The notes under the pieces are model-generated. The model was not told where the DNA came from. It made no database searches and saw nothing but the letters and a program-made list of their open reading frames with translations. This document shows, in pieces, positions 18,172-52,516 of a stretch of 64,000 bases of DNA. The stretch is from Lachnospiraceae bacterium (GTDB lineage: Bacteria; Bacillota; Clostridia; Lachnospirales; Lachnospiraceae): the NCBI GenBank assembly GCA_017455435.1, contig JAFTAU010000038.1, positions 2,284-66,283 on the forward strand, given 5' to 3'. Each line of letters opens with the position of its first letter. Within the stretch, counting starts at the first letter, position 1. The translations under genes and the position numbers were made by a program.

Positions 18172-18198
18172 GAAAACACAAGGGGACTGTCCCTTTGT
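18172..18198 (+). repeat. Post-stop hairpin GAAAACACAAGGGGACTGTCCCTTTGTG, related to the hairpins at 49161 and 50290
   Basis: Starts 2 nt after the TAG stop of the GT4 gene. Same architecture, and most bases, as GAAACACACGGGGACAGTCCCCGTGTG. Confidence 0.55.
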
Positions 18199-18320
18199 GA
18201 TTGCTCCTTTGTGTTTTGCGACGATTATCGTCAAACTCTCATGCCTGCTTTTTGACTGATTCATAGCTACAGTCAATTAAGGGAAAAAAGCCTTGCGCAT
18301 AGTTGTTGATTTGGCTCATT

Positions 18321-18445: not shown

Positions 18446-18793
18446 GAGAGTGCTGTGAGGCATGTTGCTTCTCAGCACTCTCTCTTTTCGCCTTTTATTG
18501 GCAATAATAGAGTGCTGAGAGATATGTTGCCCTATAGCACTCTTTAAGCAGTGGAGATGTAAGTGATTTCGAGAGTGCTACAAGGCATGTATCGCTATAC
18601 CACTCCCAACTATTCGTTAAACTCATTTTCAAGAGAGTGCTACAAAGGCACATGCCCCGCAGCACTCTCGTTTTTACGAAAAAGCCGATTTTTTGAGAGT
18701 GCTACAAAGGCACATGCCCTGCAGCACTCCCGATTTCTTGAATATCCCGTTTTTAAGAGAGTGCTAAAGAGATACATGCCCTACAGCACTCTT
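18446..18793. repeat. Array of six 37-nt hairpin repeats at a fixed 62-63-bp period with unique 25-26-nt spacers (CRISPR-like layout, degenerate repeats)
   Basis: Repeat starts are at 18446, 18508, 18571, 18633, 18695 and 18757. The consensus is GAGAGTGCT-N19-AGCACTCTC. Arms are conserved and the centres vary around (G)GCA(C)ATG(T)(T)GCC. Confidence 0.8.
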
Positions 18794-47942: not shown

Positions 47943-49079
47943 ATGGAAAAAGAACAATTTTTAGAGGCTCTCGAAAAGCTCATCGAAATCGGAAAGTCCA
48001 AAAACGGCGTTATCGACATTGACGAGGTAAACGATCTTTTTAAGGATGAGGATTTCACCGAGGATCAGATGGAGATTGTCTATTCTCACCTGCGCGATGC
48101 CGATATAGAGCTTGTACAGGAAATGAACGACGACCCGACGGCCGATGACGTTTTTGTCGATGACAATCTTGACGATTCTGACGACAGTCTCGACGATGCG
48201 GATGTTGCCGAAGAGGAGATAGACCTTTCGTCAATAGACCTTCTCGAAGGTGTCGGTACTGAGGATCCTGTCCGCATGTATCTAAAGGAAATCGGCGTTT
48301 ACCCGCTGCTGTCTCCGGAGGAAGAGCTGGAGCTCGCAAAGCGCAAGGCCGAAGGCGACGAAGAGGCAAAGGAGCGTCTGGTAAAGGCAAACCTGCGTCT
48401 GGTTGTCAGCATTGCAAAGCGCTACACCGGCAGAGGCATGAACTTCCTGGATCTTATTCAGGAAGGAAATCTCGGCCTCATGAAGGGCGTCGAAAAATTC
48501 GACTACACAAAGGGCTACAAGCTCAGTACCTACGCGACCTGGTGGATCAGACAGTCCGTGACCAGAGCGCTTGCGGATCAGGCCAGAACAATCCGCGTGC
48601 CCGTACACATGGTCGAGACCATCAACAAGATGTCAAAGACCCAGCGCCGTCTGACGCTGGAGCTGGGCTACGAGCCCTCCGTTGCTGAACTTGCAAAGGC
48701 CATGGACATCACAGAGGAAAAGGTCATGGAGATCATGCAGATCGCCAGAGAACCGGCCTCGCTTGAGACGCCCATCGGCGAAGAGGACGATTCAAACCTC
48801 GGCGATTTTGTCCCGGACAACAACACCGAAACTCCCGAGGGCAATATCGAAAAGGTTATGCTGCGCGAGCATATTACCGCCCTGCTCAGCGACCTGAAGG
48901 AAAGAGAAAGACAGGTTCTGATTCTCAGATACGGGCTGGAGGACGGACACCCCCGCACCCTCGAGGAAGTGGGAAGAGAGTTCAACGTCACCCGCGAGAG
49001 AATCAGACAGATCGAAGCCAAGGCCATTCGCAAACTCAAGGTACCGGTCAGAAGCAAAAAAATCAAAGATTTTCTTTAA
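47943..49079 (+). CDS. rpoD: Primary RNA polymerase sigma factor (SigA/RpoD)
   Basis: Start at ATG 47943. Acidic region 1, region 2 ([28 protein letters not shown]) and region 4 ([19 protein letters not shown]). Confidence 0.95.
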
Positions 49080-49095
49080 TCAATAGCATGTGATT

Positions 49096-49139
49096 AAAAA
49101 CCGGCGCGGCCCGTTAGATGAGTTCGCGCCGGTTTTTTG
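49096..49139 (+). terminator. Rho-independent terminator after rpoD
   Basis: AAAAACCGGCGCG-loop-CGCGCCGGTTTTTT. Confidence 0.8.
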
Positions 49140-49160: not shown

Positions 49161-49190
49161 TGAAACACACGGGGACAGTTCCCGTGTGTT
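49161..49190 (+). repeat. Left 30-bp direct repeat / hairpin flanking the rhuM cassette
   Basis: TGAAACACACGGGGACAGTTCCCGTGTGTT, which is 29/30 identical to 50290-50319. It forms a ~12-bp stem, here followed by TTTAAAAA. Confidence 0.85.
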
Positions 49191-49302
49191 TTAAAAATTG
49201 GATTGACATAGCAGCGGGAAAATGCAATATTATTTGCAAATGTTATAGGAGATTTGATATAACACAAGTGGATAGCCTCGGTGGCACAGGAGGTTTTTTG
49301 AT

Positions 49303-50292
49303 ATGGATAATTATGGAGAAATTGTTATTTACCAGACTGAGGATGGTTTTTCAAAAATTGAAGTCAATTTAAAAAATGAAACAGTATGGCTGTCGATTGA
49401 TCAGATGGCTGAACTGTTTCAGCGGGATAGAAGTGTTATTGGAAAGCATGTACGTAATATATTTAAAGAGGGTGAACTGAAAAAAGATTCAGTATGGGCA
49501 AAAATTGCCTACACTGCCGCCGATGGAAAAATATATGACGTAGATTTTTATAATTTGGATGTTATTATTTCCGTGGGCTATAGGGTTAAATCCTTTCGTG
49601 GCACACAATTTCGAATTTGGGCAAATTCGGTACTTAGGGAATACATAATCAAGGGATTTACAATTGACGACGAGCGCCTGAAGGGAAATGCCGGAGGAAA
49701 TTATTGGAAGGAACTTCTTGATCGAATCCGTGATATCCGTTCATCGGACAAGGTGCTTTATCGTCAGGTGTTAGATTTATATGCAACAAGCGTGGATTAT
49801 AATCCGAAGAGCGAAGAATCCATTCAGTTTTTTAAAATTGTACAAAACAAGCTCCATTATGCTGCCCATGGACATACTGCGGCAGAAGTGATTTATGAAC
49901 GTGCTGATGCGGAAAAGCCATTTATGGGATTGACATCTTTTTCTGGCGAGCTGCCTGCTCTTAAAGATATCGGAGTTGCAAAAAACTACTTGAAAGAAGA
50001 TGAACTAAAGGTTTTAAACAATCTTGTTTCCGGCTATTTTGATTTAGCTGAAATATCTGCCATAGAGCATAAACCGATGTATATGAGTGACTACGTGACA
50101 CAGCTGGACTCAATTCTTACTTCGGGAAACAGAAAACTTCTTACCGATGCAGGAAGTATAAGCCATGATCAAGCCATGAAGAAGGCAAAGGATGAATACA
50201 GAAAATATCAGGAGATAACGCTGTCTCCTGTTGAAGAAGAGTATCTAAAGAGTATTAAAGAAGTGGAAAAAGAGGCCAAAAAGAAAAACTGA
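49303..50292 (+). CDS. rhuM: RhuM-family protein (virulence/defence-island-associated, function unknown)
   Basis: N-terminus IVIYQTEDG..K.EV.L..ETVWL...QMAELFQ.DR.VI.KH..NIFKEGEL, then YNLDVIISVGYRVKS.RGTQFRIWA. Visibly AT-rich compared with its neighbours. Confidence 0.85.
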   Translation: MDNYGEIVIYQTEDGFSKIEVNLKNETVWLSIDQMAELFQRDRSVIGKHVRNIFKEGELKKDSVWAKIAYTAADGKIYDVDFYNLDVIISVGYRVKSFRGTQFRIWANSVLREYIIKGFTIDDERLKGNAGGNYWKELLDRIRDIRSSDKVLYRQVLDLYATSVDYNPKSEESIQFFKIVQNKLHYAAHGHTAAEVIYERADAEKPFMGLTSFSGELPALKDIGVAKNYLKEDELKVLNNLVSGYFDLAEISAIEHKPMYMSDYVTQLDSILTSGNRKLLTDAGSISHDQAMKKAKDEYRKYQEITLSPVEEEYLKSIKEVEKEAKKKN

Positions 50293-50319
50293 AACACACG
50301 GGGACAGTCCCCGTGTGTT
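50290..50319 (+). repeat. Right 30-bp direct repeat / hairpin flanking the rhuM cassette
   Basis: TGAAACACACGGGGACAGTCCCCGTGTGTT. Its first three bases are the rhuM TGA stop. Confidence 0.85.
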
Positions 50320-50330
50320 ACACACGACAT

Positions 50331-50372
50331 AAAACAAGGCTGTGAGATTCAAAACTCACAGCCTTGATTTTA
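50331..50372. terminator. Bidirectional terminator hairpin between rhuM (+) and the disrupted ggt (-)
   Basis: Perfect 12-bp stem CAAGGCTGTGAG-ATTCAAAA-CTCACAGCCTTG, flanked by AAAA and ATTTTA. Confidence 0.7.
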
Positions 50373-50394: not shown

Positions 50395-52239
50395 TTAATA
50401 CGCCAGGGCTTTGCCGCTTCTTCTCGGGTCGGCGCCGCCCCTGACGGTGCCGTCGCCGTTGAGCGCTATGGCCTGGACGCCGCCGAAATAATTGTCATAG
50501 GCGGCCTTGTCAACGAGGGTATATCCCATATCTTCGAGAGCTTTCATGGCGCTTTCGCTCAGGGGATAAACCGAATCTTCGGTAGTCCTCTCGTAGTGCA
50601 GCTCTGTTTCGCTGTCCGCCCACACCCTGGTGGTATTGATGGCTTCCTGTACGTCCATATCAAAATCTATCATGCGCTCTATCACCTGGGCCACCACGGA
50701 GAATATTCTGGTGCCGCCCGGCGTTCCTACGGTGAGGAACGGCTCATTGTCGGGAGTCAGAACCACGGTGGGAGTGATGCAGGAAAGAGGACGGGCACCG
50801 GGCTTTGCGCAGTTTACGGACTCCGGATCCAGACTGAAATCGTACATTTCGTTATTGAGAATGAATCCGTATCCGGGGACGGCTATCTTGCTGCCGTAAA
50901 AATCGCCGATGGTCTGCGTGCAGGTGACCATATTTCCGTCCTTGTCAATGATTGAATATGAAGTGGTGGAGCCATGTTCAAAGGCTGCCGGGTCCGCCGC
51001 GGTGTACTTTCCGTTTCCGGCGTCAATGCCGTCAAATCTCTGCTTGGCGTATTCCTTGGAAGTCAGCCCGTCAAGGACGCTTTGCTCCACATTCTCGTAC
51101 ATATACTCGGCTCTGTCGGCGAAAGCGATCTTTGTAGCTTCCGCGATGGCGTGAATATATTCGGGGCTGTTTATCTCCATGGTCGCAAGGTCATAGTTTT
51201 CCAGAATATTGAGGATCTCAATGAGGTGCGTGCCGCCCGAGGATGAGGGCGGAAGAGAATAAACCTTGTAATCGCGGTAAGTGGAAGAGAGAGGCGTGCG
51301 GTGTTCGACTTTATATGAGGAAAAGTCTTCCTTTGTGATGTGCCCGCCGTAGCCGTTTACCGATCCCACTATCGCGTCCGCGATCTCGCCGCTGTAAAAG
51401 ACCTCCGGCCCCTGCTCGGCGATAAGTCTGTAAGTTTTTGCCAGGTCAGGATTTGTGATGACCTCGCCCGTTTCGTATGCCCATCCGTCGTTCAGATAAT
51501 ATTCTGAAAGCTCCTTCATCGCGGATATCTGGGTGTATTCCTCGTTGGAGGCTTCTTCCATCATGGGCATGCACAGATAGCCTTCCTCAGCGTACTTTAT
51601 TCCGTCCGCCATCAGCATTGCTCTGGTGAAATTGCCAGAGCCGTAACTGTTCAGAGCCTCTTCGAGCCCCGCGATCTCTCCGGGCACGGCCACGGCCAGC
51701 CCGCCGAGACGGTTCAGTCTGGAATAAGCTCCCGTCAGGGTAGCGCCCTCTTCCGTGGTATAGTACATGATGTTTCCGTCAGCGTCGAGCCACTGCCTCG
51801 CGTCGGTGGCGGCGGGCGCCGTTTCACGGAAGTCCAGCATAATTACCTCTCCCGTATCGGCCTTGTAGATGGTCATATAGCCGCCTCCGCCGATGCCTGA
51901 GGTGTAGGGCTCCACAACGCCGAGAGTGTACGAAACCGCGACAGCCGCGTCCACCGCGTTTCCGCCGGATTACAAAACCTCGAGGCCGGCCTTTGAAGCG
52001 TACCAGCTCGAAGATGCCACGGCCGCCTCCTTTCCGGTGGCGTCTCTGTCGGTCAGGATGACCTTCCCGTCCGAGTCATAGGGAACCCAGACGGCGTTTT
52101 CGTCTTCGGTTTCCTTTTCGCCCGTGCTTTCCGCCTCGGAAGTCGGGGCGTTTGTCGTCTCGTCGGAGTTTCCTCCGCAGCCGATGGCGGAGAACACCAT
52201 AGCCAGCGCCAAAAGCAAAGAAACAAATCTGATTTTCAT
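50395..52239 (-). pseudogene. ggt: Gamma-glutamyltransferase paralogue (lipoprotein) interrupted by one in-frame TAA
   Basis: Track ORFs 51970..52284 and 50395..51954 are in the same frame. Read-through translation gives ...ASKAGLEVL*SGGNAVDAAVAVSYTLGVVEP..., with the stop (51970-51972) aligned to the Gln of LDILQAGGNAIDAAVA in the intact paralogue. Lipobox SAIGC follows the ATG at 52239. Confidence 0.75.
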
Positions 52240-52516
52240 AATCATCATTCCTTTCAGTTTAATAATTCCTCTCTGTAAGAACAATTATTCCCTTCCATTA
52301 TATTTCACCGAAAATGAAAAAACAAATACAATCATTGTCAAAAAAATGCCAATCGCCACAACGAAAAAATCCGAAGTTTTTGTATGACAACACTTCAGTT
52401 TTTTAATGATTTAGCATAATGATATTCATTTTAAAATGTTGCAAACAAAAGGAATTGTATTGTATAATAATTAAACAATTCTATGTTCGTTTTTATGTGA
52501 AAATACAGGAGATAAA

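Follow-up and report, generated by a model that had tools for sequence, protein, structure and literature searches.

In a 64,000-nt stretch of DNA from a Lachnospiraceae bacterium (positions 2,284 to 66,283 of contig JAFTAU010000038.1, GenBank assembly GCA_017455435.1; hereafter the window), a solitary rhuM gene lies between rpoD and ggt and is enclosed by two nearly identical 30-nt hairpin repeats. The window is contig C6 of a 1.73-Mb metagenome-assembled genome (MAG) that is 93.6% complete. We interpret rhuM as an islet gained by horizontal transfer, and the repeats on either side of it as two members of a dispersed family that is like the repetitive extragenic palindromic (REP) sequences and of the type associated with TIRYT transposases, a reading to which we assign a probability of roughly 0.7. 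The islet and the repeats are taken to be two separate things that overlap at one place. As a gene islet the rhuM locus is ordinary, and its repeats add a new example to a known, little-studied class.

The islet and its immediate surroundings are laid out as follows, with coordinates on the window.

47943 to 49079, + strand: rpoD, encoding the primary sigma factor, the core gene to the left of the islet (Pfam Sigma70 r1.1, r1.2, r2, r3 and r4)
49096 to 49137, + strand: intrinsic terminator of rpoD, a 13-bp GC-rich stem (inverted repeat I6, 100% complementary) followed by TTTTTTG
49161 to 49190, + strand: left repeat; the hairpin proper is 49164-49190 (AACACACGGGGACAGTTCCCGTGTGTT), and A/T runs lengthen the stem
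49203 to 49231, + strand: promoter-like site of rhuM, TTGACA (49203-49208), 17 nt and a TG-extended TGcAATATT, with 10/12 consensus matches (a match only)
49288 to 49293, + strand: Shine-Dalgarno sequence AGGAGG of rhuM, 9 nt 5' of the ATG, as read from the sequence
49303 to 50292, + strand: rhuM, 329 aa (PF13310, Virulence_RhuM, E = 9.5e-105)
50290 to 50319, + strand: right repeat; the hairpin proper is 50293-50319, and the TGA stop of rhuM (50290-50292) forms the first three bases of the repeat
50335 to 50366, both strands: terminator-like hairpin flagged on each strand, common to rhuM and the convergent ggt
50395 to 52284, - strand: ggt, encoding gamma-glutamyltranspeptidase, the core gene to the right of the islet (PF01019, E = 6.6e-141)

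The left repeat (TGAAACACACGGGGACAGTTCCCGTGTGTT) and the right repeat (TGAAACACACGGGGACAGTCCCCGTGTGTT) are in direct orientation and 29/30 identical, and a match to their 27-nt core was obtained in 0/100 dinucleotide-preserving shuffles of the window. When scored with covariance model R1, the left copy gives E = 1.2e-8 and the right copy E = 1.0e-9. The sole gene between them is rhuM; a cytidylate-kinase-like gene and rpoD lie on the left side, and the convergent ggt lies on the right. No recombinase gene adjoins the islet among the open reading frames (ORFs) of the window. This layout fully bears out an earlier sequence-only reading of the same DNA, which had described the direct hairpin repeats, the single RhuM-family gene with its TTGACA, the stop codon supplied by the right repeat, an interior more AT-rich than its flanks and the lack of an integrase, transposase or recombinase beside the islet.

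The foreign origin of rhuM is argued from its low GC and GC3, from the MatE gene that occupies the same slot in a sister species, and from relatives that reside in defence islands of other genera. The segment between the repeats has a GC content of 37.9%, compared with 49-54% in the flanks. The rhuM gene itself, at 38.1% GC and 34.0% GC at third codon positions (GC3), falls in the lowest 0.8% and 0.3%, respectively, of the genome's ORFs (n = 1279, all of at least 200 aa). The protein is 90% identical in amino acid sequence to proteins of Butyrivibrio and other Lachnospiraceae genera, and the Butyrivibrio relatives sit in defence islands, among AbiEii, nSTAND3-AAA and similar genes. Nucleotide similarity to the loci of these relatives (78.6%) is confined to the ORF (49300-50287), and the homologues are 3-4 residues longer than the RhuM of the window. 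Since the homologues are longer and the nucleotide homology ends at 50287, the right hairpin truncates the natural C-terminus of RhuM and provides its stop codon. At the loci of the close rhuM homologues elsewhere, we find no hairpins of the family. On the combined evidence of composition, homology and synteny, rhuM is a small, horizontally acquired single-gene islet.

The protein is a full-length and high-scoring member of the RhuM family, which includes rhuM of Salmonella SPI-3. Against PF13310 it scores 349.9 bits (cut-off 33.7), with residues 63-304 covering profile positions 1-246 of 252, and it matches the PADLOC profile PDLC04843 of PDC-S05 over its full length (E = 1.8e-169), PDC-S05 being itself only a candidate system. 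The RhuM domain has been proposed to be a toxin that acts by protein modification within multi-layer defence loci (Anantharaman et al. 2013, PMC3710099), and by its sequence the protein described here is a predicted toxin-type, defence-candidate protein. Unlike typical RhuM genes, this one is solitary beside rpoD, outside a type I restriction-modification locus or recognisable island, and no partner gene is present at the locus. No solved structure matched RhuM by sequence, its AlphaFold2 model is poor (pLDDT 48), and our literature search turned up no functional test of RhuM. Exact-protein look-ups with the RhuM and RpoD of the window gave no match, and that of the glycosyltransferase described below returned the same strain only.

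We compared the interval between rpoD and ggt among relatives. Four same-species assemblies were available, namely the window itself, L095 (99.93% identical), L096 (97.0%) and L105 (GCA_017539535.1; 96.7%), the last of which is collinear with the window over 11 kb. In this small sample, rhuM and both hairpins lie between rpoD and ggt in all of them (4/4), and there is neither an empty site nor a presence-absence polymorphism of rhuM. In the nearest other species, whose RpoD is 86% identical at the amino acid level (~78% nucleotide identity), the order is liv ABC transporter, cmk-like gene, rpoD, MatE, ggt and a second ggt; the synteny is otherwise the same. The slot of this sister species holds a 462-aa MatE gene and no hairpin, and so is not an empty site; the alignment with the window ends at position 49075, by the rpoD stop codon. 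The genome described here contains no orthologue of this MatE gene (best match 30% identical). A metagenome scan with Ggt returned distant relatives only, at 46% identity or less on a partial segment and 37% at full length. rhuM has replaced another gene, or has followed its loss, after the split from the sister species, and it is fixed in the sampled strains.

Each 30-nt copy is a near-perfect palindrome around one central base and folds as a 12-18-bp hairpin; the fold energies lie between -21.6 and -23.8 kcal/mol, at a z of about -5. Across 35 aligned copies, taken from this genome and from others, 95.5% of the cells pair, and three stem positions show compensatory changes, position 7 being seen as A:T, C:G and G:C. 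The arm differences at the rhuM locus among the window, L096 and L105 are, by our reading, mostly G.T wobbles on the + strand, and the RNA fold of the left copy is 5.6 kcal/mol better on the + strand (-23.8 kcal/mol versus -18.2 on the - strand). Together, the wobbles and the better + strand fold point to arms that pair with each other in one strand, whether RNA or DNA, corresponding to the rpoD/rhuM sense strand. After the left copy there is no more than TTTT, the terminator-like flag of the right copy is confined to the - strand, and a T run is absent from most copies of the family. The central base differs by strain, with A in the window and T in L105. The two copies that flank rhuM share a C:G pair at stem position 7 and GA/TGA on their left, where other copies have GG; by these shared bases they appear to be each other's closest relatives, and therefore one probably derives from the other.

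Within this genome, the family (consensus AACACAnGGGGACWGTCCCCnTGTGTT) occurs on nine contigs, with 12 sites that are strong and 3 that are weaker, arranged as 4 clusters plus singles. A stop codon precedes nine of the 15 copies by no more than 15 nt, a count that includes by-eye correction for three genes, compared with 6.5% of random intergenic positions. The genes upstream of the hairpins encode a GT4 glycosyltransferase, a NUDIX protein, an Hsp70/DnaK-like protein, an ispD-like product, a small Cys-rich protein and RhuM; apart from the glycosyltransferase, these names are our reading of the translations. The copy behind the glycosyltransferase gene is the third in the window.

18175 to 18201, + strand: third copy of the hairpin family in the window (AACACAAGGGGACTGTCCCTTTGTGAT; E = 1.1e-7), 4 nt past the stop codon of the GT4 glycosyltransferase gene

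By our own arithmetic, six pairs of hairpins lie within 1.5 kb of each other, compared with ~0.18 expected for 15 random sites in 1.73 Mb. Besides the pair at rhuM, one on contig C3 brackets what we read as a 137-aa, low-GC membrane-protein ORF downstream of lysS, while other bracketing pairs enclose an array of 37-bp palindromes on C80 and a 130-bp spacer on C52. Synteny past lysS on C3 is not kept within the genus, and for this reason an empty site for the bracketed ORF is not definable. As the family is dispersed and its members mostly follow the stop codons of unrelated genes, core genes included, the hairpin is not a signature of a rhuM cassette. Also on C3 (34958-35180), beside the bracketed ORF, one hairpin and the last ~70 nt of the small Cys-rich protein gene, on the - strand, form a 110-nt tandem duplication, which suggests hairpin-associated local duplication.

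The distribution of the family in other genomes is patchy. The hairpin was found in 0/60 relatives, seven of which belong to the same genus, and in 7/399 sampled genomes of the class, where it is mostly multi-copy. Exact matches to the degenerate 27-nt pattern occur in Thermacetogenium, Syntrophaceticus, Syntrophomonas, Alkaliphilus pronyensis and several MAGs of Clostridia and Bacillota, at loci with a GC content of 27% to 50%. In these genomes too, copies follow stop codons and form local runs, with four in 5.6 kb (L052) and three in 1.1 kb (G079), and there are clusters in G079, G289 and L052. The segments that they bracket include ordinary core genes with no GC deviation. One arrangement, L118:460-523 (G079 C24), is a REPIN-like doublet in which two inverted units separated by GTTTTAAAAC make up a 64-nt palindrome of palindromes. 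No Rfam family corresponds to the hairpin, no paper found in a literature search carries its sequence in a relevant context, and no exact matches were found in viral contigs. No protein family recurs beside the hairpins across loci, which therefore have no cis-linked gene in general. A DNA-uptake-sequence-like reading was rejected, as half-sites are scarce outside full hairpins (15 versus 1 for the control), and readings as parS, matS, CIRCE, a LexA box or CRISPR fit neither in sequence nor in layout.

A link to a transposase emerged when the genomes that carry the hairpin were searched for Y1 (HUH) genes. In G374 (L126) and G151 (L128), the start of a 246-255-aa Y1 gene is preceded at 36-45 nt by family hairpins, and an inverted hairpin variant lies 2-3 nt past the stop of the gene. 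UBA8670 (L042) has a canonical copy (AACACAAGGGGACAGTCCCCCTGTGTT) on the upstream side only, 110 nt from a Y1 homologue, and the L042 protein is 61% identical to that of L128. The inverted-hairpin flanking is weak in L129, and other members of the transposase clade are flanked by hairpins with the same GGGAC-N-GTCC core but different outer stems. The Y1 proteins match Pfam Y1_Tnp with E = 1e-14 to 1e-15, an NHIHIL motif is visible in them, and they have a C-terminal extension of ~100 aa for which no helix-turn-helix (HTH) profile match was returned. At L126:1425-1460 and L128:1416-1450, the upstream hairpin passes at its 3' end (…TGTGTT) into a -35-like TTGACA or TTGCAA, followed by a -10 at a distance of about 17 nt; from this overlap, the Y1 gene seems to have part of its promoter within the hairpin. 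Among the orphan copies in the genome described here, several also end in …TGTGTTGC.

These features recall the TIRtrons, which are genes like those for REP-associated tyrosine transposases (RAYTs) flanked by inverted repeats, and whose enzymes are named TIRYTs (Di Nocera, De Gregorio & Rocco 2013, PMC3733652). TIRtron repeats share the motif GGGGWSAS and form moderately abundant, partly self-complementary families that occur in dimers and clusters (PMC3733652); the motif is also quoted by Quentin et al. (2018, PMC6006769), who place 20 of 26 described TIRYT examples in TnpA-Y1 subclass 2.1, with a C-terminal HTH extension. For RAYT group 1, which also occurs in Clostridia, about 12 genome-wide occurrences of the flanking 16-mers have been reported (Bertels et al. 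2017, PMC5581495). We equate the TIRYT class with RAYT group 1 and with TnpA-Y1 subclass 2.1. The core GGGGACAG, which fits GGGGWSAS, is present on one strand of both rhuM-flanking copies and, with occasional substitutions, in other copies of the family. Like TIRtron repeats, the family is self-complementary, has ~15 copies (near the reported 'about 12'), occurs as singles, dimers and clusters with a patchy taxonomy, and in other genomes flanks a ~250-aa Y1 gene in inverted orientation. In contrast to published TIRtrons, which are mostly from Proteobacteria and Acidobacteria, the repeats described here are in a Lachnospiraceae host without a transposase gene, and two of them bracket a foreign defence-type gene. 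For the genes of subclass 2.1, Quentin et al. (2018, PMC6006769) reported no REP-like sequences nearby.

The family is also like the classical REP, BIME and REPIN elements of E. coli, Pseudomonas and Stenotrophomonas in that it consists of short extragenic palindromes that follow stop codons and form clusters and doublets. Classical REPs can stabilise or terminate transcripts, and are believed to depend for their mobility on a single-copy HUH-Y1 enzyme that acts in trans. The present family differs from them in having copies in the tens rather than the hundreds, a palindrome that is perfect up to a one-base centre, and no cognate enzyme gene in this genome.

Several observations weigh against the assignment to a TIRYT-type family that merely overlaps with the islet. 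The copies at rhuM are direct repeats, as judged by the central base, which differs between strains, whereas those that flank transposase genes are inverted. The GTAG/CGTC foot is absent, the alignment of 35 copies shows no conservation in their flanks, and CGTC is seen only at the centre of some transposase-flanking variants. The profile NF047646 ('REP-associated tyrosine transposase') is matched end to end by the Y1 proteins at 75-78 bits, just below its equivalog cut-off of 80 bits. No TIRYT or RAYT (Y1 transposase) gene is present in this genome (best tblastn E = 0.11, in a MAG of the completeness given above), and the link to a transposase therefore rests on other, distant genomes; either the copies here are orphans, or the transposase gene belongs to the 6% that is unassembled or to a replicon that escaped binning. 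Finally, both gene-bearing bracketed segments of this genome are strongly low in GC (0.38 and 0.37, versus about 0.5 in the flanks), which is easier to explain if the hairpins and the acquisition of DNA are causally linked than if their association is purely coincidental.

Alternatively, the hairpin-promoter-rhuM-hairpin unit could be a non-autonomous TIRtron with cargo in place of the transposase gene, moved by a TIRYT in trans through a single-stranded intermediate, with the lone hairpins elsewhere as empty or former sites. The geometry resembles that of the transposase genes, in that a promoter comes after the upstream hairpin and the downstream one is 0 nt from the stop codon (2-3 nt in L126 and L128), and the rhuM-flanking copies share three extra bases (TGA) and are the closest relatives of each other. 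Further bracketed units are the 137-aa ORF of C3, which is low in GC, the array of palindromes on C80 and, by our reading, a UDG-like gene in G079 and a PadR-like gene with a membrane gene in Syntrophaceticus; the low GC common to the gene-bearing units of this genome adds to this side. We nevertheless consider this scenario unlikely, as there is no polymorphism in the four same-species assemblies and no transposase gene in the genome, close rhuM homologues elsewhere are without hairpins, bracketed segments in other genomes include core genes of unremarkable GC, and the hairpin runs in consecutive intergenic gaps, such as the four of L052, resemble local repeat spread. A related scenario, in which the family hairpins are breakage-and-joining points where a TIRYT captures and moves whole genes and rhuM arrived beside rpoD in this way, appears similarly doubtful to us. 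If it were true, hairpin-gene-hairpin units, for which rhuM and the further bracketed units just named are candidates, would be trans-mobilised single-gene cassettes, a HUH-transposase analogue of integron cassettes. Were the repeats to help acquire genes like rhuM, they would represent a new gene-capture route with a compact test locus. The sequence-only reading had likewise taken the islet to be a small acquired cassette that integrated at, or duplicated, a hairpin site; the acquisition stands, whereas the hairpin as a cassette signature does not, given a dispersed family of ~15 copies. The genome-wide search for the hairpin that it had proposed shows dispersed copies that mostly follow unrelated genes, core ones among them, and the comparison with relatives that it had proposed shows uniform presence in the species (4/4) and MatE in the sister species.

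Two further explanations do without a TIRYT. In the manner of integrons or Xer-dif modules, the 27-bp palindrome could be a double-stranded site for a tyrosine recombinase encoded elsewhere, and a circular rhuM cassette with one such site would have recombined with a site in the chromosome to leave two direct copies; direct repeats around a promoter-plus-gene unit, palindrome arms of 11-13 bp, copies that differ only near the centre, and sites directly after ORFs, as with attC, all recall such systems, and the downstream site abuts the ORF in the same way. The palindrome is, however, perfect to a single central base and so lacks a 6-8-bp asymmetric spacer, and its 27 nt fall well short of the length of attC sites (57-141 nt), whose R''/L''/L'/R' boxes and extrahelical bases it does not have. 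The compensatory and G.T changes moreover indicate single-strand pairing, most sites follow core genes, and the family is tied to HUH-Y1 transposase genes rather than integrases; no recombinase gene lies in the rhuM neighbourhood, a genome-wide intI search not having been made. We regard this explanation as very improbable. The same low standing is given to the idea that the hairpins are ordinary intrinsic terminators that are alike by chance, a repeat without its own history. A GC-rich stem with A-rich and U-rich flanks, positions after stop codons and between convergent genes, and the terminator-like flag of the right copy on the - strand speak for this idea, but exact degenerate 27-nt matches recur in unrelated Clostridia of 27-50% GC and in none of the 60 close relatives, rpoD and ggt already have their own terminators beside the repeats, most copies are without a T run, and the family is linked to Y1 transposase genes. 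Placement after many genes irrespective of their origin, which the sequence-only reading had named as a case that would speak against it, is largely what we observe; the repeat departs from a common terminator in being sequence-conserved, patchy in distribution and linked to a transposase elsewhere.

Under the preferred reading of a foreign islet overlapped by a REP-like, TIRYT-type family, rhuM, with its own promoter-like site and ribosome-binding site, occupies the rpoD-ggt slot that is held by MatE in the sister species. A TIRYT or group 1 RAYT (HUH-Y1) transposase would copy the repeats in trans as single-stranded DNA hairpins, and the copies build up just past stop codons and cluster locally, the ones in this genome being orphans. 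One of the two rhuM-flanking copies would probably stem from local duplication or hopping of the other, as the kb-spaced runs elsewhere suggest, or else from an event of recombination or insertion at a hairpin that was already there as rhuM displaced its predecessor; rhuM may thus have entered at a hairpin, or the hairpins may have come later. Once in place, the hairpins would most likely serve the + strand transcript as 3'-end structures, in termination and mRNA stabilisation, by analogy with E. coli REPs, which are barriers to 3' exonucleases and partial terminators. In work of 2015 attributed to Liang, Rudd and Deutscher, REPs placed no more than about 15 nt from a stop codon reportedly stall ribosomes and in this way reduce the output of the preceding gene. 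By the same analogy, one may speculate that the hairpin abutting the rhuM stop could damp RhuM synthesis.

The locus carries a caution for annotation, in that hairpin repeats around a foreign gene alone are no proof of a cassette mechanism and a genome-wide search should come first. It also documents REP/TIRYT-type repeats in a Lachnospiraceae genome without the enzyme, and a 27-nt palindrome shared across distant Clostridia, where it flanks Y1 transposase genes, bears on the spread and decay of the little-studied group 1 RAYT systems. A solitary rhuM with its own promoter-like site and a hairpin on its stop codon is, in addition, a convenient construct for the study of RhuM function.

A number of smaller observations concern the islet and the family. 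Directly after the -10 of the rhuM promoter-like site, a 10-bp perfect palindrome (ATTTGCAAAT, 49231-49240) is nested in a longer imperfect palindrome (49227-49246) and may be an operator. In ggt, the window assembly has an in-frame TAA (Lys to stop) at 51970-51972 on the - strand, whereas L095 has AAA there and an intact 629-aa ggt; the TAA is either a recent pseudogene mutation or a consensus/variant artefact. One reading frame of the hairpin is open (N-T-R-G-Q-S-P-C-V, as in L052:733-1497, L046:1429-1623 and G000 C76:4302-4832), and the hairpin therefore falsely extends ORFs, or creates them, in ORF lists made mechanically, a pitfall for gene-calling programs.

Evenly spaced arrays of 37-bp palindromes (GAGTGCT...AGCACTC) are found at about 10 loci of this genome, many of them at contig ends. 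They include C80:146-500, the window at ~18446-18793, C3 from 35769 to the contig end, and sites on C7, C20, C48, C77, C84 and others. Three of the arrays lie within about 700 bp of REP-like hairpins, compared with ~0.1 expected, and the one on C80 is bracketed by two hairpins. On C19 (5164-6735), a pair that we read as a HipA-like toxin and an XRE-type (HipB-like) regulator adjoins the Hsp70/DnaK-like gene, whose stop codon is followed 6 nt on by a perfect hairpin copy; the intervening region has a GC content of 34%.

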